This document shows, piece after piece, positions 9,601 to 32,822 of a stretch of 33,457 nt of DNA. The notes below the pieces were generated by a model. That model searched no databases. It had not been told where the DNA came from and saw only the letters and a list, made by a program, of their open reading frames with translations. Source of the DNA: a virus (Duplodnaviria > Caudoviricetes); IMG/VR virus record IMGVR_UViG_3300005805_000265, positions 1 through 33,457 of that record. One strand, 5' to 3'. How positions within the stretch are numbered: the first letter of the stretch is position 1; each line of letters begins with the position of its first letter. The position numbers were made by a program, and so were the translations under genes.

Positions 9601-11152
9601 ACTGGGAGTTAGGAGTTGGGAGTTGGGATCTGAGGGCGGGTTCGGCCTGCTGGCCCTCGACTCTCGACGCTCGACTCTCGACCTCAGTACCCCTCTGGCC
9701 CTCGACACTCGACGCTCGACTCTCGACTTGGGCATTCTGGCCCTCGACTCTCGACCCTCGACCCTCGACTCCGTTTGCCCCGCCTGTAATCCGCCTAGTC
9801 CCTAGCTCGAAGGCCGCACCGGCTCCGATGTTGGCCAGTCCGGGGCCGAGGTTTCCCACGGCGGCGGCTGTCATGTTGGCAGGGGTGATCGTGCCGGAGG
9901 AGGCGAGTTCCCCGGTGGCCTGACCGGCCATGGCGAGACCGGTCTGTGTGGCGACTTCACCGGCACCTTGGGCGGCCTTGCCGATGATCGACTTGGCGGG
10001 GAGTCGGAAGAGACGGCCACCGATCCCGGCGGCGAAGCTGTCGAAGGCGGCGGCCGGGACAGCATAGCGGGTGGCATAGGACTTGGCAGAGGCCATCACC
10101 TCGGGAGTGGAGAATGCCTTGGTGAGAGACTCAGGACTCTTCAGATCGACGCCGCTCTTGGCCAGGGATTCGAGGATCTTGCCCGAGTAGTTGAGGGCAT
10201 AGCTGGTCTCTCCCATTCCCTCGATGAAGCCCGCCCGCGCTCCCGTCATTCCTCCCTGGACGGCACCGGGGATGGCTCCGACGCCACCGACAGGGGCACC
10301 GATCGCGGCACCGACCGGCACACCGAGGGCGATGCCTTGGGCCATGCGGGTCGGGATGGTCCGGGTGGCTTGGGGGACGAAGGCGGAGAGCCCCTCGGCG
10401 ACCAGCTCCGTGGTGATGAGGAGAGGGTTCTCTATGAAGGAGGAGACCGAGTCGCCCCATGAGTTCTCGGGATTGGAGAACTTTTGATAGGCAGGCGACG
10501 GAGCCGACTGCTCGATCCTCTGCTGGAGCGCGGCGATACGCGGTGCGTCCTGCTGCTCGACGGCTGAGACTGCCTCCTGCTGGGCCAGTCCCCGGTCGAT
10601 GGCGCGGGAGAGATAGTCCGTGATGGAGGGGGCGGCGGGTTGGGAGCTAGGAGCTGGGAGCTGGGAGCTGGGATCGGATAGCTCGGGCGGAGCCCACGGG
10701 ACGGGTGCTGGAAGCTGGGAGCTAGGAGCTGGAAGCTGGGAGGCCGGTGCGGATAGCTCAGGCGGTGCCCAGTCAGAGAGAGAGGCGGGGGCAGGAGCGA
10801 CACTTCCTGTCGCTGGAGATTGCTTGTCAGGGATGGGTGCGCTGGAGGGAGTCACACTTCCTGTCTCCCTTGCCGTGGTGTCAGGCTGGGCAGGAGCGGG
10901 CGGAGCGGGGGTGAAGGTGATCGTCGGAGCATTCGACTGCTCCATGCTGACAGGCGCAGAGGCCGGGGTGGCCGGGGTGGCCGGGGTTGATGGAGCCGTT
11001 AGCTCAGGGGGGACCCATGCCGGGGCATTGGTGACGGCACCCTCCTTGGGTGCGGAGAGTTCGGGTGGCACCCATCCCGAGGATGGGGACGGTGCGGCAG
11101 GTGCCTCCTTGGAGGGCTTGGCCTGCTCCAGCTCAGGAGGGACCCATGCCAT
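6602..11152 (-). CDS. large internal virion / DNA ejection protein
   Basis: 1516 aa, last gene of a podovirus-like structural operon. Pro-rich N-terminus with W(V/A)PPEL repeats, Gly/Ala hydrophobic segments, C-terminal SYDWAQPL region typical of large ejection proteins. Confidence 0.75.
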   Translation of the reverse strand: MAWVPPELEQAKPSKEAPAAPSPSSGWVPPELSAPKEGAVTNAPAWVPPELTAPSTPATPATPASAPVSMEQSNAPTITFTPAPPAPAQPDTTARETGSVTPSSAPIPDKQSPATGSVAPAPASLSDWAPPELSAPASQLPAPSSQLPAPVPWAPPELSDPSSQLPAPSSQPAAPSITDYLSRAIDRGLAQQEAVSAVEQQDAPRIAALQQRIEQSAPSPAYQKFSNPENSWGDSVSSFIENPLLITTELVAEGLSAFVPQATRTIPTRMAQGIALGVPVGAAIGAPVGGVGAIPGAVQGGMTGARAGFIEGMGETSYALNYSGKILESLAKSGVDLKSPESLTKAFSTPEVMASAKSYATRYAVPAAAFDSFAAGIGGRLFRLPAKSIIGKAAQGAGEVATQTGLAMAGQATGELASSGTITPANMTAAAVGNLGPGLANIGAGAAFELGTRRITGGANGVEGRGSRVEGQNAQVESRASSVEGQRGTEVESRASRVEGQQAEPALRSQLPTPNSQSAPSPEVRGLARSIAAAENVAPEIKAEVAASPRSLYEVQTDAAAVTRAKAEVDAVGIDAALTRILGELASGQQVTKDTITTGFELAGRLQGLGRFEDGSALLLGLGEKLTTSGQATQAASLLTRMTPQGIEIHAQNIIRKVAAGDPRLAAALAEIQDLRQQLLEARQQSGTEAILGAKQSIKEGIKDKGAITDINLKLREILSGGAITDEKVKAIVDLLVSAGVSKAEAGGIASGLVKRYASVQNNKRGDVLKLKLNASKDGKAKTKFQKLVELNNAGALSDTAATEGVAKILGAPIWTRANSLKAQSLIADYQKAKALGMEEVAMVKAAEVSDLVHESVTPSVWTKSRAAANMAMLLNTLTIIKNVGGNLILWAPERVADAVTAYVADPLVSRVTGSERTVNSVEMAERIKGLAQPVVDVMQGYSFARQKGLSPKSSMAEGVKTLVTLGRLTAQNKFEIGQINAATGQSVFSSPVMRLLENTLSVALSGADRAFYSSQFKGSIAQQLSAAKSRGESHVGPTSEMLERASMEAARAIYQDPNFLSTGMAKVREAMNWMTTLGKSKEFGLGMAIAPFAQVPGSILLRGVEWSPIGFLNAAWEGLGPVLTSKEFDQKKFSEAFTRATLGTAGLSGTGAWLAGLGIVTAMREDGDDLEKLRRSSGFGSYRINTTALKRLLMSGNLWTPQPPLDGDVIVSYDWAQPLALPLAMGAQWVHERDKTRLERLKGKPAVFAGNVAATLAGSVKTLESQPMLSGLVRFMGAAGNQGLGPALADSAASVPGMYVPTAIKQVNKLMDNYVREARAGGPIVQNLNQIESQIPWLAQRFPIRYDAFGQAMERYSYGGNSFFNVMLNPAFVSQFKSSPALREMESVFSYTGNPKVVPNQLRPKLTLRGQQLDLTNEQLSAYQQDVGSLIFTGYTRLAMSPKFAAGPADAKASAMIAVSNAAAEIGKLRLLARNRDLVSTWRDQAMSARDARQAGPVSPTAPAPPVATQVVAPR
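9603..9769. repeat. in-frame repeat modules: T(G/A)GGAGT array plus three 33-bp CTGGC-(NCTCGAC)4 units
   Basis: Units at 9650-9682, 9695-9727 and 9737-9769; heptamers at 9603-9630. Confidence 0.9.
10641..10742. repeat. in-frame T(G/A)GGAGC heptamer arrays
   Basis: 10641-10673 and 10708-10742; encode SQLPAPSSQLPAP-type peptides. Confidence 0.85.
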
Positions 11153-11155
11153 GGA

Positions 11156-11752
11156 TTAGCGCTTGATGAAGGTCTGACCGTTCCAGCTTACCGTGGCACC
11201 GGGGGGCACCTTCGCGTAGTCCTCCTCGCCGGAGATCGAATAGACCTGGGGCTCGGCGGGAGGCGCGGGAGCGGGCTGGGAGCTATGGGCCGGAACGGGA
11301 GCCGAGACCGGAGGTTCCAGAGTCGCGGCTCCGGACTGACCGACCGGCGCGGACTGAGGCGCTCCACCTAGCAGAGCGGCAAAGGGGTCCGCCTTCTTGG
11401 CGGCCTTGACGGGTTGTCCGCTGTTCCCATCCCATGCAAAGACCGTCCTCCCATCAGGATAAATCATCCCGATTCTCCCGTCTTCAGTTTGAGTATAATG
11501 AGGGGCGGGAGCCTGATAAGGTTGCTCATACTGAGCTGAGTTGGGTGAAGTCTTCAAGGCGACCCGCTTGCTCCCATCAGGTAGAATCACCTCACCGGCC
11601 GATGGCTCGAAGGCGGTCTTGGCCTTATCCATGCTTTCCACATGCTTGGCATACAGGCTGCGGACCATATCAAGATCCTTCCCCTTCAGGGTAGTGCCAG
11701 GGGTAATGCCTAGATACTGACGGCCATAATCTCTTAGGGTGATTGGTTCCAT
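11156..11752 (-). CDS. internal virion protein
   Basis: Lies between ejection genes; C-terminal EEDYAKVPPGATVSWNGQTFIKR resembles termini of podovirus internal proteins. Confidence 0.6.
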   Translation of the reverse strand: MEPITLRDYGRQYLGITPGTTLKGKDLDMVRSLYAKHVESMDKAKTAFEPSAGEVILPDGSKRVALKTSPNSAQYEQPYQAPAPHYTQTEDGRIGMIYPDGRTVFAWDGNSGQPVKAAKKADPFAALLGGAPQSAPVGQSGAATLEPPVSAPVPAHSSQPAPAPPAEPQVYSISGEEDYAKVPPGATVSWNGQTFIKR

Positions 11753-11755
11753 AAA

Positions 11756-12139
11756 TTAGAACGTGTATCCCTCACCACCAGCCGCAGCCCCAGCCTGCCC
11801 TTGTTGGTTCATCTGGATGTTCTGCTGCTTGAGCATGTTGGCGTATTGGAGCTGGCCCATGTTGTAGATCCCCCGCTTGGTTCCGATGGATCCGGACTGG
11901 AACTTCTCCAGCATCCCGCCGTCGATGGCTCCCTGCTGGGCGAGGAAGTCCATGCCACCGCTCATCATGTCCAGTTCCTCGCGGGTCATCTGACCCTTGT
12001 TGGCTGATTGGGTCATCCCTCCGGAGATGGCTCCCGTGGCGGAGTTGACTCCGTCGGTGATGCCCTTGGCCATGGCGAGTGTGCCAGCGGCGGTGATCTG
12101 GCCGGATTGATCTTGGACGGTGGGATTGTAGGCGAACAT
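11756..12139 (-). CDS. internal virion protein
   Basis: 127 aa, Gly/Gln/Met-rich; position in the ejection cluster. Confidence 0.6.
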   Translation of the reverse strand: MFAYNPTVQDQSGQITAAGTLAMAKGITDGVNSATGAISGGMTQSANKGQMTREELDMMSGGMDFLAQQGAIDGGMLEKFQSGSIGTKRGIYNMGQLQYANMLKQQNIQMNQQGQAGAAAGGEGYTF

Positions 12140-12153
12140 GAAGTTAGGGGTTT

Positions 12154-12202
12154 AGGCTGAAGGCTGAAGGCTGAAGGCTGAAGGCTGAAGGCTAAAGACT
12201 GA
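12154..12202. repeat. AGGCTGA heptamer array (7 units)
   Basis: Five perfect and two variant units, intergenic. Confidence 0.95.
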
Positions 12203-12208
12203 CGGGTG

Positions 12209-13414
12209 TTAGTATTGGTAGGGGGCGGCGCTGGCCATTTCGGCGCGGCGTGCGTCCATCCACTTACGGAGGCGGGCCTTCCAGCCGGGGCGGGTGGAGA
12301 TATACTCGGCGATGCGCGGGCCGTTGGCGGCGTAGCGGCTGACGCGGCGGTAGCTGCCACGGGTGAGGAGCCAGTCACGGAACTCCATCCAGGCCGGGTT
12401 CTCCTCGCCATAGACCTCGCGGGCTACCCAGCAGAAGGCGGCGGCGGATCCGATCTTGCCGATGGCACCGATCCCGGCCCCGGCGATCTGGCCCCACATG
12501 GCCTTGTCGGCGGCAGCGGTGGCCGCGTTGTTGTTGAGTGCCGAGTTATACATCGACGCCTGCATGTTGGTGTTGAAGCTGGAGACATTCCCCGCCATGC
12601 CGAGGGCTTGGTTGTAGGTGTTGCCGATCATCTGACCCGTCTGGCCGAGGATGCCACTGCCGAGCTGGACACCGGTGCCAAGCGCACGCTGATAGGGATC
12701 GAGGTTGACCAGGGCATTGGCCCCGCCGAAGCCGAGCTGGGTGGCATTCTGGTAGGCCCCACCACCCTGACCGTAGATGTTGGCGGTATTCCCCAGCATT
12801 CCGAGGGCTGCGGACTGGCGGCCCTGGATACCCTGCTCGCGTGTCTGGTTGGCGGCCTGGGCATTGGCGAGGCGCTGCTGGTAGCGGGCATCGGCGACGG
12901 CCGCACGATTCAGGATCTCAGCGGCGGCGGCACCGGATCCGACTCCAAGCCCGCGTGCGGCGAAGGCACCACGGGCGGCTTGGGAAGCATTGCGGGCTTC
13001 CTCGGCATTGAGCGAGCGGCCGAGGGCCAAGTCACTGGCGGCGGCGTCGTAGAGGCCCTGCTCGATGGAGGTGGGACCGGCGAGAGCACGACCCTGAGCA
13101 TCGAGAGCGACGGTGCCGGAGAGATCGCCGAGCGCATTGATCCGGTTTCCGGTGTCAGCCAGTGCAGTGGCTCCCTGCTGGAGCGTGGTGTCGATGACTC
13201 CCTTGGCCTGACGAGTGTAGGCATTATCGAGGTTTCCTCCCAGCTTGGAAACCGTGCCAAGCTGAAGCGCCTCCATCTTGGGATAGTAGGCAATCTGGGA
13301 CTTGAACTGCTGATCGACGGCTGCACGGGCCTGCTCGTTGGCAGAGCGCATGAGCTTGGCATAGTCGATCTGCTGAGGTGCCGCTGGTACTGGTTGTGAT
13401 TTGGATCCGCCCAT
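12209..13414 (-). CDS. ejection/pilot protein with C-terminal CWVAREVYG (CFI-box-CTERM-like) domain
   Basis: Ala/Gly/Gln-rich helical body, Gly-rich hydrophobic segment, then CWVAREVYG...FRDWL...Y..NGP.IA. Confidence 0.7.
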   Translation of the reverse strand: MGGSKSQPVPAAPQQIDYAKLMRSANEQARAAVDQQFKSQIAYYPKMEALQLGTVSKLGGNLDNAYTRQAKGVIDTTLQQGATALADTGNRINALGDLSGTVALDAQGRALAGPTSIEQGLYDAAASDLALGRSLNAEEARNASQAARGAFAARGLGVGSGAAAAEILNRAAVADARYQQRLANAQAANQTREQGIQGRQSAALGMLGNTANIYGQGGGAYQNATQLGFGGANALVNLDPYQRALGTGVQLGSGILGQTGQMIGNTYNQALGMAGNVSSFNTNMQASMYNSALNNNAATAAADKAMWGQIAGAGIGAIGKIGSAAAFCWVAREVYGEENPAWMEFRDWLLTRGSYRRVSRYAANGPRIAEYISTRPGWKARLRKWMDARRAEMASAAPYQY

Positions 13415-13422
13415 GGGGAGAT

Positions 13423-13492
13423 TAGGAGTTGGGAGCTAGGAGCTAGGAGATGGGGACTACAGATTCTCGCGCAGAGGCGCAGAGGCGCAGAG
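13423..13492. repeat. TAGGAGC array plus 26-bp TCG-(CGCAGAGG)3-type unit
   Basis: 13423-13456 and 13467-13492. Confidence 0.9.
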
Positions 13493-13894
13493 GGGAGAAG
13501 GTGAAAGGTTTACGCGGCGGGCGAGGTGATCCCACTTGTAGGCATGGATGTTGTGCGGGCGATTGCGTGCGGCCCGATACCAGAGGACGTAGGTGTGAGG
13601 ATGGGGAGCGATGCGGAGAAACTCCCGAATGGGAGAAACCTGAGACTTGAAACCTGAGACCTGAGTTGAAGCAGCCGCCAGCTCGGTGAACCATGCATTG
13701 ATCGGTAATCCCTGCGCCCTTGCGTCTTGGCGCGAGATCATTTCCTCTCCCGTCCAGTGACATTCCTGGGCGAGCAGGAAGACTTCTCTCGTCGAATGGA
13801 TGAGCCCGCCGGAAAGATGCCATCCGAGGATTTCCTCGAAGGGCGTCATGCAGTTCTCCGACTGCCATTGGCGAGCGATCTCCCATGCGAGCAT
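13457..13894 (-). CDS. virion-associated protein, possibly acetyltransferase-like (T7 gp13 position)
   Basis: 145 aa between tail and ejection genes; contains repeat-derived QVSGFKSQVS and LCASAPLR. Confidence 0.55.
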   Translation of the reverse strand: MLAWEIARQWQSENCMTPFEEILGWHLSGGLIHSTREVFLLAQECHWTGEEMISRQDARAQGLPINAWFTELAAASTQVSGFKSQVSPIREFLRIAPHPHTYVLWYRAARNRPHNIHAYKWDHLARRVNLSPSPLCASAPLRENL

Positions 13895-14329
13895 TTAGGC
13901 TGAGGGACGAGGGCCGAGGATGTCGGGCCAGACTTCCTTGAGCGATGGGATCTCAGATGGCAGCGCCACCTTCGTCACATCGCGGAGGGACTGCTTCTCG
14001 GCCGCGATCTCGGCCTGCTTGGCTGAGTCACCCTGCTCGACCGCACGCATGTAATCAACATCCAGCTTTGAGAGGATCGGCTTACGAGCCTCGCGGAACT
14101 TGTCGAGGTGGAGTTGCTTTGCCTTCTCGATGTTGACTTCTGCGCCAGACTCCTCGCTAAAGTCGTAGGCGTTGAAGTAGTCGTTGTCCAAATCGAGCGA
14201 ATCCACAATCTTGTAGGGGACTCCTGCGGGGGCATCCTTCGCGGCGATTTCTTCGATAGACAGGCTCGGATCGGCTGGGATGATGACCGCGACTTGTCCG
14301 TTAGGCTGGGGGTAAGTGATGAAGGGCAT
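13895..14329 (-). CDS. tail fibre assembly chaperone
   Basis: DKFREARKPILSKLDVDYMRAVE...EKQSLRDVT...WP is a typical fibre-chaperone pattern; directly after the fibre gene. Confidence 0.75.
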   Translation of the reverse strand: MPFITYPQPNGQVAVIIPADPSLSIEEIAAKDAPAGVPYKIVDSLDLDNDYFNAYDFSEESGAEVNIEKAKQLHLDKFREARKPILSKLDVDYMRAVEQGDSAKQAEIAAEKQSLRDVTKVALPSEIPSLKEVWPDILGPRPSA

Positions 14330-14330
14330 A

Positions 14331-15017
14331 TTAGTTTCCGAAGACTCGGATGTGACAGACGGTAGCGTCAGAAACTACTGCGTTTACCGCACTTGATCCC
14401 GTCCAATTTGAAGTAGCGAACCGAAGTGATGTGGTTGTCGCCGCAGAACTGGCGTTGTTGATCAGCACTCCAAGCTGGGTATTTGCTGAGGTTGTGAAGC
14501 CTGCGAAAGTATAATTCGCATCCGCCATAGCCGTTGCAAAGTTCACCGTGTAGTCGCCTGTCCCGTTCTTCGTGACCGAGGAGACGTTGTAGCTGGATCG
14601 GATTGCAGGGGTTCCAGTTCCGTTGAAATTCACCCACGCCTTGCAAATCTGCCGCTGCTCGTTGGTTCCGAGCTTCGCGGCGGTGACGACGCCATTGGCG
14701 ATCTTGGCCGTTGTCGATACCACCCCGTCAGCAATGGCATTGGCTGTGGTGGCCGTGCTGGCATTGCCAGTCAGGTTGGCCGTGATGGTTCCCGCCGAGA
14801 AATTACCACTCGCATCCCGAGCCACGATAGCGCTGGCCGTATTGGCGCTCGTGGCCGTGGTGGCGGAGTTGGCAACCTTGCCAGCTCCGGTGATCGGACC
14901 GGTAATGTCGGCATCGACGATCTGGGTGACGGTCGCGCTATCGACGAGCGAGTTGAGCTTGGTCGGGGTGACGACTTCTCCGGAGACGAAGGTGCGGCCT
15001 TTGGTGACGAGAGCCAT
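14331..15017 (-). CDS. tail fibre protein
   Basis: VTPTKLN N-terminus, IVARDASGNFSAGTITA, C-terminal KAWVNFNGTG...NVSSVTKNGTGDYTVNF domain. Confidence 0.8.
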   Translation of the reverse strand: MALVTKGRTFVSGEVVTPTKLNSLVDSATVTQIVDADITGPITGAGKVANSATTATSANTASAIVARDASGNFSAGTITANLTGNASTATTANAIADGVVSTTAKIANGVVTAAKLGTNEQRQICKAWVNFNGTGTPAIRSSYNVSSVTKNGTGDYTVNFATAMADANYTFAGFTTSANTQLGVLINNASSAATTTSLRFATSNWTGSSAVNAVVSDATVCHIRVFGN

Positions 15018-15033
15018 GGGGAATTAGGGGTTT

Positions 15034-15220
15034 AGACTGAAGGCTGAAGGCTGAAGGGGTTTAATCAGGAAATCAGGAAATCAAGAACTGAAGGGATGAT
15101 GGGGAGGGGGGGAGCTGAAACGGAACTGGATCCAGTGGGAAAGTGGGAAAGAGGCAGGTATGAAGGTTTCTCTGTTTTAGCCTTTCGCCTTTTGCCTTTC
15201 GCCTTTTGCCTTTCGCCTTC
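15034..15220. repeat. composite spacer: AGGCTGA x3, AATCAGGA x3 plus tail, AGTGGGAA x2, GCCTTT(C/T) x6
   Basis: Read directly from the spacer between the fibre and nozzle genes. Confidence 0.9.
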
Positions 15221-15224
15221 TCCC

Positions 15225-17324: not shown

Positions 17325-17336
17325 AGGTAGAAGTTA

Positions 17337-17436
17337 TCGCGCAGAGGCGCAGAGGCGCAGAGAGGAGGGAGACGGAGAAACCACGAAAGGCTGAATCATC
17401 ATTCCTTCTGTTCCTGAGTTCCTGATTTCCTGATTA
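17337..17436. repeat. composite spacer: CGCAGAGG unit plus inverted AATCAGGA module
   Basis: 17337-17362 and 17397-17436. Confidence 0.9.
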
Positions 17437-17445
17437 TTCATTTCC

Positions 17446-17895: not shown

Positions 17896-17913
17896 GGGTG
17901 GGAGGGGGAATTA

Positions 17914-17939
17914 TCGCGCAGAGGCGCAGAGGCGCAGAG
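17914..17939. repeat. 26-bp CGCAGAGG unit
   Basis: Identical to the copies at 13467, 17337, 20370 and 22500. Confidence 0.9.
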
Positions 17940-17957
17940 GGAGAGAAATGGAAAGGA

Positions 17958-18362: not shown

Positions 18363-18379
18363 GGTTGCAGTAGGTATTT

Positions 18380-18492
18380 AGGCTAAAGGCTGAAGGCTGT
18401 TAGGTCAGAGGGGAGAAACCACGAAAGACACGAACGACACGAAAGGGTGAACCATCATTCCTTCTGTTCCTGAGTTCCTGATTTCCTGATTC
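18380..18492. repeat. composite spacer: AGGCTGA, CACGAA-type 9-mer x3, inverted AATCAGGA module
   Basis: 18380-18411 is identical to 32201-32232; 18453-18491 is identical to 17397-17435. Confidence 0.9.
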
Positions 18493-18513
18493 ATTTTCTT
18501 GAGCCTTTCAGAG

Positions 18514-18568
18514 TGGTCCTCGGACGGATCGTCATCCGACGCAGGGGGTTCGGACTCCCCGCCCGAGG
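18514..18568 (-). ncRNA. mini tRNA-like element ending in ACCA
   Basis: CCTCGGG/TCCGAGG stem plus A-CCA enclosing hairpins GGGG-AGTCCGAA-CCCC and CGGAT-GACG-ATCCG. Confidence 0.4.
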
Positions 18569-18572
18569 CAAA

Positions 18573-19112: not shown

Positions 19113-19132
19113 AGATGTTTAGGGGTTAAGAC

Positions 19133-19243
19133 TCACAGGGATGAAGGGGATGAATGGGATGGAAGGAAATTATGAAGGATGAAGGATGAAGTATGAAAAC
19201 TTGCAGCTTGCTGGCTCTCGACTCTCGACTTTCGACTCTCGAC
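19133..19243. repeat. composite spacer: GGGATGAAG 9-mer, GATGAAG 7-mer, 33-bp CTCGAC unit
   Basis: 19133-19162, 19167-19197 and 19211-19243. Confidence 0.9.
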
Positions 19244-19252
19244 TCGGGCTGG

Positions 19253-19969: not shown

Positions 19970-20126
19970 AGGGATGAAGGGGATGAAGGGGATGGGAGAA
20001 AATTATGAAGGATGAAGGATGAAGGCTGAGGGGATTGAATATGGAACTCAGGAACTCAGGAAAGGGATGAGCAAACGGAAAACTTGAAACCAGAGTCAGA
20101 AATCTCTGCGCCTCTGCGCCTCTGCG
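19966..20126. repeat. composite spacer: GGGATGAAG, GATGAAG, GGAACTCA, GAAACCT-like, inverted CGCAGAGG
   Basis: Five module types in about 160 bp. Confidence 0.9.
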
Positions 20127-20130
20127 GGAG

Positions 20131-20355: not shown

Positions 20356-20369
20356 GGATGGGGAAGTTA

Positions 20370-20395
20370 TCGCGCAGAGGCGCAGAGGCGCAGAG
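20370..20395. repeat. 26-bp CGCAGAGG unit
   Basis: Exact copy of the unit. Confidence 0.9.
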
Positions 20396-20399
20396 AGGG

Positions 20400-20660: not shown

Positions 20661-20690
20661 AGGGATGAAGGGGATGAAGGGGATTGGTGT

Positions 20691-20861: not shown

Positions 20862-20889
20862 AGGTGTTTAGGCTGAAGGCTGAAGGCTG

Positions 20890-22481: not shown

Positions 22482-22499
22482 AGGGAGAGGGGGAAGTTC

Positions 22500-22657
22500 T
22501 CGCGCAGAGGCGCAGAGGCGCAGAGGAGAGAGATGGGGATTTCATTGTTTGGATTTAGCAGCCTCAAACATCGCAAGGATCTTTTGAGCCGGGGTGAGTT
22601 TCTTAAAAACGATTTTGGACTTCTTCATTTTCTCTGCGCCTCTGCGCCTCTGCGCGA
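22500..22657. repeat. perfect 26-bp inverted repeat pair
   Basis: 22500-22525 and 22632-22657. Confidence 0.9.
22542..22628 (-). CDS. 28-aa basic mini-ORF inside a 26-bp inverted-repeat pair
   Basis: MKKSKIVFKKLTPAQKILAMFEAAKSKQ; AT-rich; fills the space between the inverted repeats. Confidence 0.45.
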   Translation of the reverse strand: MKKSKIVFKKLTPAQKILAMFEAAKSKQ

Positions 22658-22660
22658 TCA

Positions 22661-24715: not shown

Positions 24716-24725
24716 GGGGAAAAGG

Positions 24726-24867
24726 GAAAGGCGAAAGGCGAAAGGCGAAAGGCTGAAGGCTGAAGGCTGAAGGAGTTGAATCAGGAAATCAGGAAATCAG
24801 GAACTGAAGGGATGATTGTGATGGAATGGGATTTCTGGCCCTCGACTCTCGACTCTCGACCCTCGAC
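24726..24867. repeat. composite spacer: AAAGGCG x3, AGGCTGA x3, AATCAGGA module, 33-bp CTCGAC unit
   Basis: 24726-24773, 24778-24816 and 24835-24867. Confidence 0.92.
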
Positions 24868-25210: not shown

Positions 25211-25240
25211 GGATGCTCCCCCCATGACAGGGGAGCATCC
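25211..25240 (-). terminator. stem-loop after the capsid gene (terminator or mRNA stabiliser)
   Basis: GGATGCTCCCC / GGGGAGCATCC 11-bp perfect stem with outer extension; no U-tract. Confidence 0.5.
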
Positions 25241-25257
25241 GGTGTCAGACCACCCGA

Positions 25258-26277
25258 TTAGGAAGCGGTCGAAGCGATCTTTCCAAACCCGCGAGGGGCA
25301 TGGACTACGAGGCCAGCGATGGCGTCGATGATGCCACGGGGTCCACCGCCGCGATCCTCAAGCTCGCGGAAGGCGGGACGGCGGCCGTAGCGCACCTCGA
25401 CCATCTCGGGGTCGATGATGTATCCACGGCGGCTCTGAACCGCTGCGTTCCCGTCCTGGGCCAGAAGCAAGGAAGGGAGGAGCTGGGTCGATCCAAAGTC
25501 ACCCTCGAAAAGATCGATCGTCGAAACGATTTTCTTTTCGGAGGCGTTCTGGTTGTAGGTCTTGACGTTCAAGGCCACGTTGGCCGAGCCAGCCTGAGTG
25601 CGGGTGAACTCCGTGAAGCGGCGCTTCAGGGTCGGGCCGCAGAGCAGCACGAGGTTCTTCACCGTGCCGGTCTGCTCGTAGATCGCCTGAAGCAGGTTCT
25701 GGATGCTGCCCTCGGTGATCGAGTCAGTGGCGGTCGTGCTGATCGCACCGGCCACGGAGCGGTAGTCGCTCGGGACGGGGAGATCTGCGGTGGCCGTGGA
25801 GGAAATCCAGGCGCCCAATCCCCTCGTGCGGTACGGGGTACTGGCTCCGCTCTGCTGGACGCTGTCGCTGTCCGAGCAGAAGGCGGCCTCGATGTCGCGG
25901 CCGAGTTCCTCGATGGACTTGGCAGCACCACGGGCCATCTCCTTCTTGCGGCCGACACCGGCGACATCGGAGATGTTCGCGGCGAAGTCGTCCACCATGA
26001 TGGAGCGGCGGAACTTCTGGCAACGGCCGGAGAGCTTCGCACGCTGGGCGGCGGGGGAGTCCCACGCGGAGACGTCGTCACCGGCCATGACGCCGGAGAA
26101 GGAGGGGGCATTGTAGCCGTCGGCTTGCCAGGAGAAGACGTCGGGGTTGACGAGTTCGGCACCCTTCTTGGCGAGGGCGAGGAGGGGCTTGCTCTTGGCG
26201 TCGACCACAGCGATAAGGTCGCTCAGGTCTTCGCGCAGGCCCTTGGGGATCTGTTCATTGATGGTGAGTAGGGGCAT
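25258..26277 (-). CDS. major capsid protein (SU10/DUF5309-like, HK97 fold)
   Basis: GLREDLSDLIAVVD, FSWQAD, ELGRDIEAAF, YRTRGLGAWI, FEGDFG; follows the scaffold gene. Confidence 0.85.
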   Translation of the reverse strand: MPLLTINEQIPKGLREDLSDLIAVVDAKSKPLLALAKKGAELVNPDVFSWQADGYNAPSFSGVMAGDDVSAWDSPAAQRAKLSGRCQKFRRSIMVDDFAANISDVAGVGRKKEMARGAAKSIEELGRDIEAAFCSDSDSVQQSGASTPYRTRGLGAWISSTATADLPVPSDYRSVAGAISTTATDSITEGSIQNLLQAIYEQTGTVKNLVLLCGPTLKRRFTEFTRTQAGSANVALNVKTYNQNASEKKIVSTIDLFEGDFGSTQLLPSLLLAQDGNAAVQSRRGYIIDPEMVEVRYGRRPAFRELEDRGGGPRGIIDAIAGLVVHAPRGFGKIASTAS

Positions 26278-26319
26278 TTTGGTTGGTTGGTTGTTCGGAG
26301 TCGGCGGGGGTAGTTGTGC

Positions 26320-27378
26320 CTATCCGAGGAGTGATTCCATGAGGGCTGTGACCGAGTCCCGGTCTCCACCCTCCAAAGCTTTCTGTAGCGACGCGGCGTC
26401 GCGTGCGCTCTTGGCGGGGATTTTCGACTTGCCTGTCACCTTCGGAGGCTCCGGCGCGGGTGACTGCGCCTTCCGGGATGGGGAAGCGGCGGGGGCTGTG
26501 GCGGATTTCGCCTTGGCCTGTGCTTCCTGACGCGCCATGCGGGCCTGCTGGCCGACAAGTGCGTCACCGATGATCAGCTCGACATTGGGATACTTGCCCA
26601 ACGCGGGGTACTGCTTGAGGATGTCCCGTAGCGCCTTGCTCTCGGCCGAGCCCTGGGTGAAGAACGCCGGGTAGGCCGTCTGGGCCTCGGCCCGACTGGT
26701 CTCCCTCTGCGCCAACCATGCCCTGCGGGACGGCCCGTGATCGGTCACGATCGCGTCGGCGGCTGCGAGGTGTCGGGCCATCTCGGCCGCATCGACATAC
26801 TCCTCACTGCCATCGGCCCCCTTCACGGTGGCCCCGTCGCGGTTGGTCATGGCCCAGGTACGCACCCGCTTGGCGGTGGCGATCCTGGCATCCAGGTCCT
26901 CGATGGACTCGACATCGGTGAGCGGATCCTCGGGAGTCGGCTGGAGCACCACCTTGGAGGCGGCGGCCAGTTCCGTCCTGAGCTTCTCGGCTTCCTCGCG
27001 GGTCTTCTCCAGCGCCTCTTCGGCCTCGCGCCGTTTGGCGGTCAGCTTGTCGATTCGCTTGAGGAGCTTGTCAGCCTTAGGGGACCGGGCCTCGCCCTTC
27101 TCTGTGTCCTCGCCGTCGGCTTCCTCCGCGTCGTCGTCCTCTTCGTCGGATGATTCCTCATCCTCCTTGGAGTCTTCCTCTTGCTTCTCCTCATCCGTCG
27201 TGGAGGCTTCCTCCTGCACGGATGGTGCTGTGTCATCGTTCCCGGAGTCTTCGGTGGCCTCGGGCTTCTCAGCCGTGGGCTCCTCTTCCTCCGTTGCGGG
27301 CTTCGCTGATTCGATCCGGATGCTCTCCGGGAGGAATGCCGCGATGTCCGTCAGACTTATCTCGTTCTCTGCTGCCAT
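26320..27378 (-). CDS. capsid scaffolding protein
   Basis: Acidic N-terminus, KRIDKLTAKRREAEE coiled coil; immediately upstream of the capsid gene. Confidence 0.8.
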   Translation of the reverse strand: MAAENEISLTDIAAFLPESIRIESAKPATEEEEPTAEKPEATEDSGNDDTAPSVQEEASTTDEEKQEEDSKEDEESSDEEDDDAEEADGEDTEKGEARSPKADKLLKRIDKLTAKRREAEEALEKTREEAEKLRTELAAASKVVLQPTPEDPLTDVESIEDLDARIATAKRVRTWAMTNRDGATVKGADGSEEYVDAAEMARHLAAADAIVTDHGPSRRAWLAQRETSRAEAQTAYPAFFTQGSAESKALRDILKQYPALGKYPNVELIIGDALVGQQARMARQEAQAKAKSATAPAASPSRKAQSPAPEPPKVTGKSKIPAKSARDAASLQKALEGGDRDSVTALMESLLG

Positions 27379-27492
27379 AGGTAAAATCCCCTAAGTGGAA
27401 ACAAGCCCCATTTGTCCCTGCTCTCCGATCAGGCTGGCCGGGCTAGGTACTGCCGCCTGATATGCGCACTCGTCAGGTATCGAGGGGGGAGG

Positions 27493-27529
27493 TGTCAATA
27501 ACTTTCTAACTGGAACCAGTTAGAAAGTT
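27493..27529 (-). promoter_or_regulatory. putative late promoter with upstream palindromic operator
   Basis: TTGACA at 27498-27493 points into scaffold/capsid; perfect palindrome AACTTTCTAACTGG-AA-CCAGTTAGAAAGTT at 27500-27529. Confidence 0.6.
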
Positions 27530-27717
27530 GAAGGATGAATGAAGAAGGATGAAGGATGAAAGGGATCCGAAACCTGAAACTGGAAACTGGAAACCTGAGT
27601 CAGAAATCTCTGCGCCTCTGCGTTTGCTTGCCCGGCCGTTGCTTCGCATCCGTTACGGCTGCGCGAGAACCTTCAGCCTTCAGCCTTCAGCCTTTCGCCT
27701 TTCGCCTTTCGCCTTTC
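27530..27717. repeat. composite spacer: GATGAAG, GAAACCT, interrupted CTCTGCG unit, CCTTCAG/CCTTTCG array
   Basis: 27670-27717 is the exact reverse complement of 24726-24773. Confidence 0.92.
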
Positions 27718-27723
27718 TGGAAA

Positions 27724-27841
27724 TGGATCGGGGGAGGATCAGGTCGCTAGGATTTCGGAACGAGGCATGAAGCCTTCTGCGTCCGTGTTTCCCCCCTCAT
27801 TGCCTCCCCCGTCCTAAGCGCGGTCAGAGCCTACTCGATCC
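27724..27841 (-). ncRNA. candidate rod-like structured RNA
   Basis: Nested pairings GGATCG/CGATCC, CGC-T-TAGGA/TCCTA-GCG, GAGGCA-A-TGAGG/CTTCA-TGCCTC; ends in CCA-TTT; no credible ORF. Confidence 0.4.
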
Positions 27842-27908
27842 GTGCTCCATTGGCGCATCAGTCCTCGGTTGACCGGCAGCCAGTCGTCGAAACGTGCTGG
27901 CGGGAAAT

Positions 27909-27983
27909 TGGTTCCCGGCTGGGCTGACCATATCAAGCTTTGACCTTGGCCCATTCAAAGAGCCTGCGTCCATAGCACCGGGA
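27909..27983 (-). ncRNA. tRNA-like element ending in ACCA (non-canonical)
   Basis: TCCCGGT/GCCGGGA 7-bp terminal stem plus A-CCA; GGCTC-TTTGAAT-GGGCC anticodon-like arm; 75 nt; D and T arms non-canonical. Confidence 0.4.
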
Positions 27984-28024
27984 TCTCTCAGGCGTCCCCG
28001 AGAAAATATGTAAAAGATCAGTAT

Positions 28025-28101
28025 CTCTGCGCCTCTGCGCCCCTGCGGGAGTCTTCAGTTTGTAGCTCTCGACTCTCGACTCTCGACCCTCGACTGTCGA
28101 C
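28025..28101. repeat. inverted CGCAGAGG unit plus TCTCGAC x5
   Basis: 28025-28047 and 28062-28101. Confidence 0.9.
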
Positions 28102-28386
28102 TCAGCTCTTAAACCGATAATGCAGCGTCGGGTAGACGCCGCGCAGTCCCGTGTCGATGCGGAAGGTGCGGTGCTCTGCCATGCCGCTTCGCACGGCCTT
28201 GGAGATCAGGACTCCGGTCCGCTTGTCGGAGAGGCCCCATGCCTCCTCCAGATCGCGGCGGGTGTACCAACCGGAGGGAACCTTCTCGGGCTTCACCAGG
28301 GGGCGGGACGGACGGGATGGCTTCCGCTTTGCTGGCCCTCGACGTTCGACCCTCGACCCTCGACGCTCCGCTTTTGCCTTCTTCAT
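28102..28386 (-). CDS. small basic, winged-helix-like protein (94 aa)
   Basis: ATG at 28386 coupled (ATGA) to the phosphoesterase stop; VPSGWYTRRDLEEAWGLS...PTLHY. Confidence 0.65.
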   Translation of the reverse strand: MKKAKAERRGSRVERRGPAKRKPSRPSRPLVKPEKVPSGWYTRRDLEEAWGLSDKRTGVLISKAVRSGMAEHRTFRIDTGLRGVYPTLHYRFKS

Positions 28387-29366
28387 TGGAACTTGGAGGC
28401 CAGTGTCCCGAGCAGTGAGCGACCCTCGATGATGGGGATATTCAGATGGAGGAACTCGCCTGAGCGGGCGACGACCTGCACGCCGAAGCCATGGCTCCAT
28501 CCGACGGGATTGGTATTTTGCCAGAGCGGCTGAAGCTCGCAGAGGCATCCCGGATTCCAAGCGGCGATGGCTCCCGTGTGGACGGGTCTGCCGGTCGAGG
28601 ACTGGGCGCGGTGGGTATGGCCGAAGACAAGCGGTGCTCCGAATGCCTGGAGCATGGAGTCGGTCGCCTGCCTCGGGGTGCGGCTGCCGTGGGTGAAGTA
28701 GCATTTCCCCAGTCGGATCGCGCCGGGCAACTTGAGTCCCATGTAGAACTCTCCCTGCCGGTAGTAGGGGATCCCGCGCTCCTTGAGATTGAGCAGGAAC
28801 TCGGGGGCGAAGGCCCGGCGCAGGAACTCGGCATCCTTGGCATTCCGCAGTGACTGGGTGACGCACCAGGTCTCGACGCGGCGTTCGTGATTCCCCTCGA
28901 TGTAATGGATGCGGGCGCGAGGCGCGGCAGTCTGGAGCGCATCGAGGAAGGCGCGGGTGGCGGCGATGTCCTGTTCGTACGTATAGGAGGCATCCGCGAC
29001 GTAGCCCAAAACATGATGCTGTGCGAGCAGTCCGCCGCAATCGACATGATCCCCGAGCAGGACGATCTCGTCGGGGTTCAGTGACTTCACATCACCGAGG
29101 CAGGCCGAGAGCGCCTGCTGATCGGCCTTGCACCCATGGGTGTCGGGGATGACGACGCGGACCAGCTCCTCGCCGGAAGAGCGGGCGCTCTTGGCCGGGA
29201 CGGGTGCCTTGGCCCTTGGCGTGGCGTGGGCACGCTCCAGCGCGGCGGCGAGCTTGGAGTTGGATTCCTCGGAGGATCGCAGTTGTTCGCGCAGACGGCG
29301 CACCTCATCGGCGGCTGCTGATTGTTCGAGCAGGGCCTTGGCCCCGAGCAGTGTTTTCTTTCCCAT
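28383..29366 (-). CDS. calcineurin-like metallophosphoesterase
   Basis: PDTH, GDHVD, GNHE, THG and GHTH motifs. ATG at 29366 follows a purine-rich SD-like sequence; the track starts at 29411. Confidence 0.85.
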   Translation of the reverse strand: MGKKTLLGAKALLEQSAAADEVRRLREQLRSSEESNSKLAAALERAHATPRAKAPVPAKSARSSGEELVRVVIPDTHGCKADQQALSACLGDVKSLNPDEIVLLGDHVDCGGLLAQHHVLGYVADASYTYEQDIAATRAFLDALQTAAPRARIHYIEGNHERRVETWCVTQSLRNAKDAEFLRRAFAPEFLLNLKERGIPYYRQGEFYMGLKLPGAIRLGKCYFTHGSRTPRQATDSMLQAFGAPLVFGHTHRAQSSTGRPVHTGAIAAWNPGCLCELQPLWQNTNPVGWSHGFGVQVVARSGEFLHLNIPIIEGRSLLGTLASKFQ

Positions 29367-29407
29367 AGTGTCCCTTTCTCCCCCGAGATGCGGGGGATGA
29401 GCGTCCG

Positions 29408-29731
29408 TCAACGCTGACGGACCGACTCCTGACGCCTGCGTTCCAACTCGTGACGCACTGTGCGGATCATGTCAAGCCCTCCTGCACAATGAGCGAGCAG
29501 ACCCGGCTTGTCGGCGACGGTCGCCGCGCTCACCAGCTCGATCTGATCGGCCTCGGCATCGGCAAGCAGCTCCTGCAATCCCCGCCACCAGAGCGGCTCA
29601 TCATCGAGCCCGACGGAGAAGGCCATCCGTCTCTCCTCCTCGGAGAGACGGTAGAAGCTGGAAGCTGGGAGATAGGAGCTGGGGCTAAAGAGGGAGCGGA
29701 GGTAGCTGAGGATGTAGGTGATGGGGTTCAT
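29408..29731 (-). CDS. hypothetical head-module protein
   Basis: 107-aa helical protein (LAHCAGGLDMI) of the type often found near portal/scaffold genes; repeat-derived SPSSYLPASS near the N-terminus. Confidence 0.6.
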   Translation of the reverse strand: MNPITYILSYLRSLFSPSSYLPASSFYRLSEEERRMAFSVGLDDEPLWWRGLQELLADAEADQIELVSAATVADKPGLLAHCAGGLDMIRTVRHELERRRQESVRQR

Positions 29732-29743
29732 GTGATTAGGGGA

Positions 29744-29835
29744 TTAGGCTGTTAGACTGTTAGACTGTTAGACTGTTAGACTGTTAGACTGTTAGACTGT
29801 TAGGGGTTGAGATGTGGAACTCAGGAAATCAGGAA
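29744..29835. repeat. GTTAGACT octamer array (6 perfect units plus flanks) and GGAACTCA module
   Basis: 29751-29798 is perfect; 29812-29835. Confidence 0.95.
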
Positions 29836-30227
29836 TATGGATTCCTGGGGTCTTTCTCCGGTTCACCCATGATCTTATTTGCCAAAGAGTTCAAAAGATA
29901 CGCAGGCTCTGAAGCGGGCAAATCCATCAAACGGGATGATGCATCAGCTTGATCCGTCGCCGATTCAAAATCATCCACCATGGATTCAGCTTGTTGAGGC
30001 GAAAGAGTTGAAAGAACCATGTAATCAAAACGCCTCTGCGTTCCAGGTAGACCCATCATCCTGCGTTCATATCGAACCGTTTCATAAGCAGGTTCAAATG
30101 ATTGTTGAGTTGACCAACTTGGGATTGATTGACGAGGCACAGGAACAACCCAAGATTGGCCTTCCCCGAGATCAATTTCACGAATTTGGCCGTGCCATGG
30201 CCCTCCGATAAAAATGTAAGATTTCAT
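29829..30227 (-). CDS. low-GC hypothetical protein (moron-like)
   Basis: 132 aa, FIGGPWHGQ N-terminus; visibly more AT-rich than neighbours; bracketed by inverted repeats. Confidence 0.7.
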   Translation of the reverse strand: MKSYIFIGGPWHGQIREIDLGEGQSWVVPVPRQSIPSWSTQQSFEPAYETVRYERRMMGLPGTQRRFDYMVLSTLSPQQAESMVDDFESATDQADASSRLMDLPASEPAYLLNSLANKIMGEPEKDPRNPYS

Positions 30228-30244
30228 ATTTTATTGAATATAGT

Positions 30245-30301
30245 TTCCTGAGTTCATGAGTTCCATATTTTCATCATTCATAATTCATCCTTCATAATTT
30301 T
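30245..30301. repeat. inverted GGAACTCA module plus inverted GATGAAG module
   Basis: 30245-30268 and 30271-30301. Confidence 0.85.
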
Positions 30302-30304
30302 TGC

Positions 30305-31921
30305 TCAGTACGTTCCACCGGAACGGACTGACAAGATTTCTCCTTCCACATTTGTCACTCCCGACAGGCAGAAGTACCGCAGGCAGTCGATTGGATCCTT
30401 GAGCGCGCCGGTCTTCCCGTCCGCGCCGGTCCATTCCTTGAGCGCATGAATGGTGTTCTTGCACTCCTCGGAGACGTAGAGCCGTGGCTGGTTCAGCGCA
30501 TCGACCGGCTTCCCCGTGTCGTAGTGGAGCCAGTCATTGATCAGGTCGATCCCCTCGTCGATATTCGTGCCGGGTGTGGCGACGAAGTTCAGGCCGATCT
30601 CGGCGCATTCCTCGATCAGCGTGGTGGCGCTCTCGCGGGCGACGGTGGCGGCATTCCCATAGCGGCTGTCCATCCAGCGCTCGAAGACCACTTCTCCCTT
30701 CTCCAGTCGCTCGATCTCCTCCTTGTAGCGCTCCAGTCCGAAGCCGAAGCTCTTCTGCGCCGGACCGGCACGGCCGTCGGCCTTCTTCCCGTCGGGCTCG
30801 GCCCATGCCCCTGCGTAGCCGACGCCGTCGATGTAGTCCTGTCCGGGCCACTCCCGATAGACAAAGGCCCGGCCCGAGTCGTCGATCAGGAGCCAGATCT
30901 GGAACCAGTTCCTACCCGAACAAGGATCCACAAACTGGTAGCGTGTCCCCTTGGTCGGGATGCGGCTCTGGGGGATGACATGGACGCGGTCACTGAAGAG
31001 GGGGAAGCGTCCGGCGATCGCCTTGGTCGGGACGCCGTAGGCTCGGCAGAGGATCTCGGGGCGGGCGGCCTTCTCCAGCTCCTCCCTCATGCGGGTCCAG
31101 CCTGCCCAGGGATTGTTCCGGGTGTGGAAATACAAGACGCTCGCCTTCCTGCGGACGCATCGCTGAATGACCGGCACCTTCTCATGGCCGGTCAGTGTCC
31201 GCTTCCCCTCGACATCGCCGTAGATCGGGAGCAGCTCGGCATCGGCCTCCTCGACCGTCTCGGCCCCGGTGAGGTAATCCTTCACCGTGGCGGAGTAACC
31301 CTCGACCGGCGTGAAGCTGACGATCAGCTTCCCATTCCGGTCGAGCAGGCGGTAGCGCATGGTGGTGAGCCAGTCGAGCGGGACCAGCTCGTCACACCAG
31401 ATGATGTCCAGCTCTCCACCCTCGATCGTGGAGACATCCTGGGCGTAGTTGCGGAACCAGCACTGGGAGCCATTCGGCAGGACGAAGGCATTCTCCGAGA
31501 AGCCGTTCTTCTGGGAGTAGGAGATATTTGTGACCTGAGTCTTCTTGGCGGTCTTCCACTCCAAGGGCATGTTGTGCCAGATGTAGGGCTGCTGCATCTC
31601 GACCGAGTTCGGAGCGGTCGTCTGGAAGCACCAGGCACGAGCACGAGGCTTCTCCACCAGCGCACGCATCACCTCGCGGGCGGCCCAGGAGGATTTCCCC
31701 GAGCGGTTCCCTCCCATGACCAGCACCTCCCGGTCATGCTCCAGCACGGCGCTGGCCCGCTTCCAGTGATCGGGGACAAAGCCATGCCGGAAGGGATCCT
31801 CCCGCTCCTTGCGGATCAGCTCCTCGCGGAGCTGGGCGGCGGCCAGCCACTGATCGGGGGGAAGTGTCGCGGGAGGAACCGGCAGTGCCGGGTGCGGGGT
31901 GGGTGTCCAGGATTTGGGCAT
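30305..31921 (-). CDS. terL: terminase large subunit
   Basis: Walker A GGNRSGKS, Walker B IIWCDE, coupling motif SFTP, nuclease VDP and KDPIDCLRY. Confidence 0.92.
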   Translation of the reverse strand: MPKSWTPTPHPALPVPPATLPPDQWLAAAQLREELIRKEREDPFRHGFVPDHWKRASAVLEHDREVLVMGGNRSGKSSWAAREVMRALVEKPRARAWCFQTTAPNSVEMQQPYIWHNMPLEWKTAKKTQVTNISYSQKNGFSENAFVLPNGSQCWFRNYAQDVSTIEGGELDIIWCDELVPLDWLTTMRYRLLDRNGKLIVSFTPVEGYSATVKDYLTGAETVEEADAELLPIYGDVEGKRTLTGHEKVPVIQRCVRRKASVLYFHTRNNPWAGWTRMREELEKAARPEILCRAYGVPTKAIAGRFPLFSDRVHVIPQSRIPTKGTRYQFVDPCSGRNWFQIWLLIDDSGRAFVYREWPGQDYIDGVGYAGAWAEPDGKKADGRAGPAQKSFGFGLERYKEEIERLEKGEVVFERWMDSRYGNAATVARESATTLIEECAEIGLNFVATPGTNIDEGIDLINDWLHYDTGKPVDALNQPRLYVSEECKNTIHALKEWTGADGKTGALKDPIDCLRYFCLSGVTNVEGEILSVRSGGTY

Positions 31922-31975
31922 GGGGGGAAAATGATGAAGGATGAATGAAAAATGATGAAATGGGGGAGACTGAGG

Positions 31976-32194
31976 CTATTTCTTGCGGAGTGAGCCGAAG
32001 ATCTCGTTGAACATCCCGTAGGTCTCGGCTCCGGATGCAGGCGTGGACGGTCGGGATGACTCGACTCCATGGCGGAATCCGTGATCCCAGACGGAGACAA
32101 AGAACTTCCTGATCCCCGCACTGGTGAAGTGGGGATTGTCGGCCAGTTTCGGGTTGCTCTTGAGGAGTTTCTTCCAGAGGTCTTCTCGGTTCAT
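31976..32194 (-). CDS. hypothetical protein
   Basis: 72-aa ATG ORF upstream of terL. Confidence 0.65.
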   Translation of the reverse strand: MNREDLWKKLLKSNPKLADNPHFTSAGIRKFFVSVWDHGFRHGVESSRPSTPASGAETYGMFNEIFGSLRKK

Positions 32195-32225
32195 AGGGAA
32201 AGGCTAAAGGCTGAAGGCTGTTAGG

Positions 32226-32822
32226 TCAGAGGATCTTCTCAGGCTTCACGAAGCGCTTCATGGCGTTGAGCAGGTCGCAATGACGCTCACACGTTTCTTC
32301 GTTGTCGAAGGCCGCTTCCATCGGCCAGTCGGCAGTCGTGCCCAGGTTCTCATCCATGAAGTCGATATAATCGCGCATCAGTCTGAGGAGCCTCTTGGTC
32401 CTGTCCCGTTCTGCTTCCAGGTCCAGTTCTGACATGACTGCTCGTTGCTTCCAACCGATCAGGAACTCGATCTCTCTCTGGGCATTCTCACAGGTTTTGC
32501 GGTGCGCCTCGCGCTCGCGGCAGAGGTGCGTTCTGCCATCCTCATCGCGCTGGGTTGTGTGGGCCTTGCAGGTCCAGTACGCACTAAGCGGGTCGGTCCT
32601 CGGGGATCCACAATGAGGGCAGGCGTCGGTGCGTGGGGCAGGCGCTAGGGGTTTAGGCTCTAGACTGTTAGGCTTGCTGGCCCTCGACCCTCGACTTTGC
32701 AGGCCCGGCCGTTGCTTCGCATCCGTTACGGCGACTCTCGACTTCCTAAAGATCCCATCCCAATTCTCCCGATACTCCCGGCTGAAGCAGCTCCTCGGGC
32801 TGTCACCCTTCCCGGCGCTCAT
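32226..32822 (-). CDS. hypothetical protein: GKGDxPR..Y..NWD.IF peptide, repeat-derived linker, Cys-rich (Zn-ribbon-like) domain
   Basis: ATG at 32822 coupled (ATGA) to the upstream stop; CPHCGS...C...C. Confidence 0.65.
   Translation of the reverse strand: MSAGKGDSPRSCFSREYRENWDGIFRKSRVAVTDAKQRPGLQSRGSRASKPNSLEPKPLAPAPRTDACPHCGSPRTDPLSAYWTCKAHTTQRDEDGRTHLCREREAHRKTCENAQREIEFLIGWKQRAVMSELDLEAERDRTKRLLRLMRDYIDFMDENLGTTADWPMEAAFDNEETCERHCDLLNAMKRFVKPEKIL
32645..32742. repeat. in-frame repeat block with nested 33-bp hairpin element
   Basis: TAGG/TAGAC-type units, then CTCGAC unit 32677-32742 interrupted at 32699-32731. Confidence 0.85.

Follow-up and report, generated by a model that had tools for sequence, protein, structure and literature searches.

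We analysed a stretch of 33,457 bases (the window), which is a single virus record, IMGVR_UViG_3300005805_000265, and most of a temperate SU10-like phage, for the arrays of short tandem repeat units (modules) that lie between many of its genes. The window contains an integrase gene, an excisionase-like gene, holin and endolysin genes, genes for a portal and a capsid protein of SU10 type and the gene for the terminase large subunit (terL). Its structural genes are on the minus strand, and the coding strands are C/A-rich across the genome. Capsid proteins 77–99% identical to that of the window were found in 13 viral loci. Near-complete relatives span 38–44 kb, and a replication region of ≈ 7–10 kb, present in the relative G002, is probably missing from the window. 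The metagenome runs listed as containing the stretch are mostly from lakes or fresh water, and two that are listed as RNA or possibly RNA contain small shares of it.

The window contained 36 arrays of period 7/8, compared with none in each of 20 dinucleotide shuffles. Modules were present at 18 of the 28 structural-gene junctions between 11.1 and 32.2 kb and at 18 of the 21 junctions of at least 25 nucleotides (nt), and positions 1–6600 gave no array match. A first-pass annotation of the sequence had proposed both the presence of arrays in most late-operon spacers and their absence from the first 6.6 kb, and both proposals held. Tandem units of 7–9 nt far exceed chance and are mostly intergenic, as are repeats of the type described by Rehm, MacGregor and Aklujkar. 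The description as a late-operon spacer system needs some correction. The arrays at 9603–9771 and 10641–10742 are inside an open reading frame (ORF) of 1516 amino acids (aa; 6602–11152), the array at 28332 is within a small conserved ORF (28102–28398) and that at 13467 overlaps the end of a 145-aa ORF. The replication region of the relatives also bears arrays, and the apparent late-specificity is in part due to the lack of this region in the window. In the integrase/immunity regions of six genomes (≈ 33 kb), we obtained 0 matches versus 169 elsewhere.

The individual sequences were largely as annotated. The exact 26-mer was recovered at all six loci (13467, 17337, 17914, 20370, 22500 (+) and 22657 (−)), and the conserved tail of the AATCAGGA arrays was found at four places. 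CTGGC-(NCTCGAC)4, annotated as exact at six sites, measured 33 bp at all of them; it was exact at 9650, 9695, 9737 and 24835 but contained one deviant unit each at 19211 and 28332. CACGAAAGA occurred exactly once, at 18420. Run X1, which may be the source sample, had eight listed contig pieces without differences from the window. These pieces mostly terminated at arrays, so that for long arrays the number of units is less secure than the presence of the array itself.

The arrays are placed in a fixed order. On the mRNA strand, a junction leads from the stop codon through G/A-rich arrays, in some cases a linker or small ORF, then C/T-rich arrays and a short tail rich in C to the start codon; we refer to the two kinds of array as G-rich and C-rich arms. 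Among 72 distinct spacers of the window and its relatives, 29 had both kinds, with the G-rich arm first in 28, and the sole exception consists of two units in tandem. C-rich arrays only were seen in 21 spacers and G-rich only in four, and no array was detected in 18. The purine fraction was 0.57 in the first 25 nt of the spacers and 0.26 in the last 25 nt. A site resembling a Shine–Dalgarno (SD) sequence precedes one of 24 window genes. The preferential retention of the C-rich arm, together with this scarcity of SD-like sites, supports a role of the arm in the initiation region. The in-frame arrays of the 1516-aa protein follow the same order as the junctions.

To compare spacers between relatives, we took ten module junctions and three module-free control junctions and used pairs whose 150-nt flanks had an identity of 90% or more, leaving out G010. 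Among these pairs, which share ancestry, spacer identity was below 0.6 in 12 of 32 at module junctions and in 0 of 57 at controls. Most module junctions had 4–7 spacer types in 5–11 genomes (one had a single type in four), compared with 2–3 types in 10–13 genomes at the controls. The genomic stability of loci that is a trait of the repeats of Rehm 2015 was not seen here; module junctions are highly variable. Between close relatives, unit families were swapped or absent at the same junction, and near-identical alleles differed in unit number by single 7-nt units. Some relatives had empty junctions at which the genes overlap or nearly touch. G008 had one array in 13.9 kb and the distant relative G010 had none, and family spectra differed between lineages. 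Random variation among close relatives with no bias had been named in the first-pass annotation as speaking against a system of modules; unit type does vary among relatives, but the bias in position and strand is strong.

The modules behaved as discrete units, as had been proposed. Units of arm, unique linker and arm recurred at unrelated junctions (unit A at three, C at four and F at three), and all 18 copies were in mRNA orientation. Occurrence of one discrete unit at several non-homologous sites is a property of MITEs (miniature inverted-repeat transposable elements) and was seen for A, C and F. The copies of unit C had a mean identity of 0.90 within a genome (nine pairs) versus 0.83 between G005 and G009 (12 pairs). 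Exact-pattern scans of viral contigs yielded linker A in five and linker C in three stretches, seven of these eight in records already analysed. One contig of run X6, at the depth of the phage, skips 27562–28072 (511 bp inside unit A) with 15 letters between. This difference fits nesting of a segment inside unit A, and a deletion in X6 would look identical.

The attP-like core upstream of the integrase gene (4571–4608) corresponds, in reverse complement, to the 5′ half of a tRNA-Thr(UGU) gene. Of 41 relatives of the Verrucomicrobiia metagenome-assembled genome G014, eight had exact copies, each of the eight within the first 21 listed, as did three of 401 genomes of the class Verrucomicrobiia. 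(AGGCTGA)3 was found in 15 of the 41 relatives and in none of the last 18 listed. A 392-kb sample of G014, made up of 18 contig starts and two stretches picked for a match, also has the modules and tails of the window at gene ends. The host link suggested earlier was supported. This sample contained 45 arrays, or 1.15 per 10 kb versus 10.8 per 10 kb in the window, a difference of about ninefold.

Each of five candidate-host genomes had 3–8 matches to PF05635 (four-helix-bundle) and 2–6 matches to PF13366 (GxxExxY). At 30 candidate-host cassette loci, genes commonly had a G-rich arm on their upstream side and a C-rich arm on their downstream side, and seven of the 11 annotated module families were found among these arms, in the same orientation as in the phage. 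Arms of AGGCTGA, NCTCGAC and GTTAGACT flank four-helix-bundle genes; CGCAGAGG, AATCAGGA/GGAACTCA, GGGATGAAG and CACGAAAGA flank GxxExxY genes. The earlier statement that similar arrays flank genes of these two families held for this host clade, and the statement that the window has no such gene was correct: 0 of 41 window proteins, and none in five near-complete relatives, matched either family. The 26-mer arms around the 28-codon ORF are also on eight host GxxExxY loci, and the arms of the terL junction belong to the same family as those of the host GxxExxY cassette L235. Both the 132-aa cargo ORF of the terL junction and the 28-codon ORF lie between host-type arm pairs. The latter is likely to be a real micropeptide gene; its peptide is also conserved in the viral locus L251. 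An exact 25-mer was present in ≈ 620 stored stretches across phyla, with an inverted copy within 700 nt in 67 of 123. No GxxExxY ORF directly downstream of it was flagged in 123 bacterial loci, using a crude first-ORF rule, or in 15 viral loci.

We consider it probable that the modules are gene-less, MITE-like derivatives of the arm-flanked host cassettes that were copied between co-oriented junctions, reshuffled and filtered for a C/U-rich initiation arm. The arrays are likely to be selfish copied DNA rather than a regulatory code. The observations behind this reading are the identity of the arms with those of candidate-host cassettes, the fixed order, the recurrence of units, the swapping of alleles, one apparently nested segment and the in-frame copies. 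The phage would first have acquired arms from cassettes of its host, either as a lysogen or in the course of infection. Units would then spread inside phage genomes. The most likely route is ectopic recombination or gene conversion involving the arms of co-oriented junctions, possibly triggered in trans by a host GxxExxY nuclease. Homologous recombination in flanking genes would shuffle old spacer alleles among phages and yield chimeric arm pairs. Selection may tolerate units only at junctions and in flexible linkers, and would keep the C/U-rich arm as a G-poor, weakly structured initiation region for genes without SD sites. The phage population shows many alleles per junction between near-identical genes, units shared across junctions, an apparent nested intermediate and near-empty relatives, which are rarely found in chromosomes. 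These data favour a copying process over a regulatory code and point to two named host gene families as the source.

Several results weigh against this reading. The assignment of the host, putatively one Verrucomicrobiia clade, comes from the 38-nt tRNA match, and the 401 class genomes contained no close prophage, only distant capsid genes (best identity 43–46%). The reading does not account for the ninefold excess of arrays over the host or for their absence from the integrase module. Four of the 11 families had no pattern match to any arm of the 30 host cassette loci. Searches of 26 host-clade genomes recovered neither linker A nor linker C, which indicates that the composite units are not direct imports and apparently spread within the phage lineage. 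No mobilising gene was seen in the window or in five near-complete relatives, and the host GxxExxY and four-helix-bundle proteins are only candidate partners as mobilising enzymes. By-eye comparison of empty and filled junctions revealed no target-site duplication; the spacer was replaced rather than cleanly extended. Finally, among 47 pairs of swapped alleles, mismatch was 23% over the initial 15 nt of the next gene and 3–8% further in, compared with ≈ 3% for same-allele pairs (19 pairs). By eye, amino acids at gene ends beside swapped alleles were largely kept. This divergence peak implies that many alleles are old and that swaps need not be recent insertions; old spacer alleles would travel by homologous recombination in the flanking genes.

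A more active role of the host proteins is conceivable, though rather unlikely. The GxxExxY nuclease and the four-helix-bundle proteins might form a hitherto undescribed, transcription-linked mobile system that writes arm units exactly at stop–start junctions, with the temperate phage family as amplifier and carrier. If so, lytic growth would drive junction-to-junction copying and make a dock for accessory genes, and the swaps would be a log of the mechanism that underlies heptamer repeats in bacteria.

The first-pass annotation had interpreted the modules as a host-derived or phage-co-opted punctuation code, for late-transcript processing or translation or for cassette exchange. The host link stood, and so did the variable cargo between arms at the terL junction; the code itself now appears unlikely. 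Under it, the units would act in cis to direct cleavage, termination or tuned translation of the transcript made in lytic growth, and would set protein stoichiometry. This agrees with the strict polarity, with C-rich arms that abut start codons lacking SD sites and with the confinement of arrays to the region of the main lytic strand. In the last six codons before G-rich arms, synonymous third positions were purines at 17 of 26 sites versus 19 of 62 in other genes, in gene sets chosen post hoc, and translational regulation has been proposed for similar repeats (MacGregor 2015, PMC4679880). However, units can be exchanged and dispensed with: families replace one another at a single junction and G008 lacks them, and the same grammar is found in frame in a coding linker. 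Compared with shuffles, folding of the mRNA strand gave z < −2 in only 17 of 59 spacers, and terminator-like sites (hairpin plus U run) numbered 15 versus 14.2 ± 3.6 expected, i.e. there was no excess. The antisense strand gave z below −2 in 24 of the 59 spacers, and several alleles had z of −4 to −6.5. We dropped an antisense hairpin as a functional structure, since C/A-rich coding strands alone turn mismatches into A–C on the mRNA and G–U on the other strand.

With similarly little probability, the arms are fossils of old insertions at each junction, where copying has ceased and nothing but homologous recombination and slippage still reshuffles them. The divergence peak in codons adjoining swapped spacers, the 7-nt differences between near-identical alleles and the lack of a mobilising gene in the phages are as this would predict. 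It does not account for the unit C copies within one genome, which carry that genome's own linker variant at non-homologous junctions, nor for family spectra that differ by lineage.

It is improbable that the modules are boundary sequences selected by the phage to promote accessory-gene exchange by linker-type modular recombination. At the terL-to-next-gene junction, all nine other records had DNA unlike the window ORF, mostly short ORFs, often with similar G-rich arms ahead and similar C-rich arms behind, and in G003 and L012 unit A is followed by extra ORFs. At most module junctions, however, there is no cargo, the arms are too divergent between lineages for a shared linker, and genes are also gained and lost in the array-free integrase module (by eye, uncounted). 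Independent slippage microsatellites favoured by composition, a very improbable origin, would explain the one-unit steps in unit number but are largely refuted by the shared linkers and fixed tails, the identity with cassette arms and the exact 25-mer that recurs across phyla, often with its inverted copy.

The proposal that the modules derive from host cassettes invites comparison with known systems. The PF05635/PF13366 cassettes have the same arm families and orientation as the phage modules, and two window cassettes have the arrangement arm–ORF–arm. The host cassettes enclose a gene of these families, whereas the phage copies do not, and most phage arm pairs are mismatched: inverted terminal arms were matched at two window junctions and in several alleles of relatives. 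MITEs, repetitive extragenic palindromic (REP) sequences and REP doublets forming hairpins (REPINs) are short, non-coding, multi-copy intergenic units with inverted ends and a putative partner gene elsewhere. The phage units resemble them in being short, non-coding, multi-copy and intergenic and in their putative partner gene elsewhere, and some of them in their inverted ends. Unlike them, the phage units end in tandem arrays, fill or replace the stop-to-start interval and have no target duplication that we could see, and their partner, the candidate host genes, is not a known transposase. The intervening sequences of 23S rRNA are inside an rRNA gene and have a long stem cut by RNase III, whereas the phage arrays lie between protein genes and fold in a minority of spacers.

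Repeats of this kind are in print. In the passages compared, the heptamers of Xanthomonas and Nostoc are often paired as inverted repeats of unknown function, with the G-rich strand ≤ 50 bp after the stop on the sense strand and before the start on the antisense strand (PMC4692102), which resembles the phage modules. They are described there as one unit per genus, not on plasmids and at stable loci, whereas arrays are dense in the phage, with about a dozen families stacked at the junctions that vary most. Geobacter metallireducens has several families of 3–5 tandem 7–8-mers, in opposite-strand pairs at variable distance, both intergenic and intragenic (PMC2700814). They are chromosomal and were read as regulator binding sites; neither a cassette link nor turnover is in the passages compared. 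The TAACTGA repeats of Beggiatoaceae are heptamer arrays just upstream of starts mostly lacking SD sites, as in the phage (PMC4679880). Unlike the modules of the window, they form a single family of nearly all direct repeats, and 'phage' does not occur in the main text. The phage arrays are of a known kind, reported from several phyla, for which no origin, function or mechanism is given in the compared parts of these three papers; the proposed cassette-derived copying in a phage would be new. We found no paper linking such arrays to PF05635/PF13366 cassettes or to phages, in a literature in which subscription papers were little covered and Geobacter supplements may list some of the same units. 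In phage annotation, arrays of this sort obscure where genes end and look like regulatory motifs.

Table 1. Positions of module arrays and associated features in the window
Position	Strand	Feature	Remark
4571..4608	-	Core resembling attP, upstream of integrase; 5′ half of tRNA-Thr(UGU) gene	Exact matches in host-clade genomes; tRNA-Thr called in L165
4758..5996	+	Integrase (PHROG 1)	Integrase/immunity module array-free, 0 module matches in 6/6 genomes
9603..9771	-	In-frame arrays in linker of 1516-aa protein: three GTCGAG-type G-rich arms, then C-rich arm	Different C-rich family at same place in G001
10641..10742	-	In-frame TGGGAGC-family arrays, proline-rich linker	
12140..12208	-	Junction: AGGCTGA-family C-rich arm and tail preceding ATG	
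13415..13493	-	26-mer arm over end of 145-aa ORF, then TGGGAGC-family C-rich arm preceding ATG	
15018..15224	-	Junction stack: G-rich arm of AAAGGCG, operator-like palindrome, C-rich arms of AATCAGGA and AGGCTGA	Seven spacer types in seven genomes
17325..17445	-	Endolysin to 699-aa gene junction: tailed AATCAGGA arm followed by 26-mer arm	
17896..17957	-	Holin to endolysin junction: 26-mer C-rich arm only	Genes overlap, no spacer, in G004 and G008
18363..18572	-	Junction: conserved stretch, tailed AATCAGGA arm, arms of CACGAAAGA and AGGCTGA	
19113..19252	-	Composite unit A (GTCGAG arm, unique linker, GATGAAG arm) and GGGATGAAG arm	Unit A at three different junctions, five records
19970..20130	-	Junction stack: one G-rich arm followed by several C-rich ones	
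20356..20399	-	26-mer C-rich arm preceding ATG	
20661..20690	-	GGGATGAAG C-rich arm abutting GTG	
20862..20889	-	AGGCTGA C-rich arm preceding ATG	
22482..22660	-	Matched inverted 26-mer arms around 28-codon ORF (22542-22628), layout of host GxxExxY cassette	Folding z -7.7
24716..24867	-	Junction upstream of portal gene: GTCGAG arm, then three C-rich arms	Six spacer types in 11 genomes
27529..28103	-	Apparently nested stack upstream of scaffold-like gene: unit A, 511-bp segment within linker	Includes host-shared palindromic repeat at ~27623-27660
28332..28368	-	In-frame NCTCGAC array, small conserved ORF	
29732..30304	-	terL to next-gene junction: GATGAAG and GGAACTCA G-rich arms, 132-aa cargo ORF (29829-30227), GGAACTCA and GTTAGACT C-rich arms	
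31922..31975	-	GATGAAG-family C-rich arm preceding terL ATG	
32195..32225	-	AGGCTGA C-rich arm preceding ATG	

The integration target varies among relatives. The tRNA-Thr(UGU)-type half is present in G000, G004 and G009 and a different tRNA-like half in five others; the type tracks that of the integrase, and the integrases are 41–44% identical. The 1516-aa protein has ≈ 120 residues fewer near position 700 than its counterparts in G001 and G005, and a tblastn search with it gave no match in G002, G003, G004 and G009. For the 132-aa cargo protein, the ESM Atlas returned unnamed clusters only (0.90–0.91, low recognition) and no family assignment. By eye, the cargo ORFs at the terL junction of several relatives start with a shared TDTPRT-like motif, and the G-rich arm apparently provides the start codon.

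A short palindromic repeat lies among the arms at 27623–27660 and 32701–32735; it is shared with the host (six matches in 448 kb of host loci), and many metagenome contigs have just this piece in common with the window. A different, operator-like palindrome (ACTGG-W-W-CCAGT type) occurs at 15124–15137, 27508–27521 and 3298–3311: inside one module junction, a short way upstream of the TTGACA hexamer that precedes the scaffold-like gene and near a similar hexamer in the immunity region. It had 2–8 strand matches in most large relatives and three in the 392 kb of host sequence. Upstream of the holin gene, 18500–18570 is kept across relatives while the adjacent modules change, and appears hairpin-like by eye.

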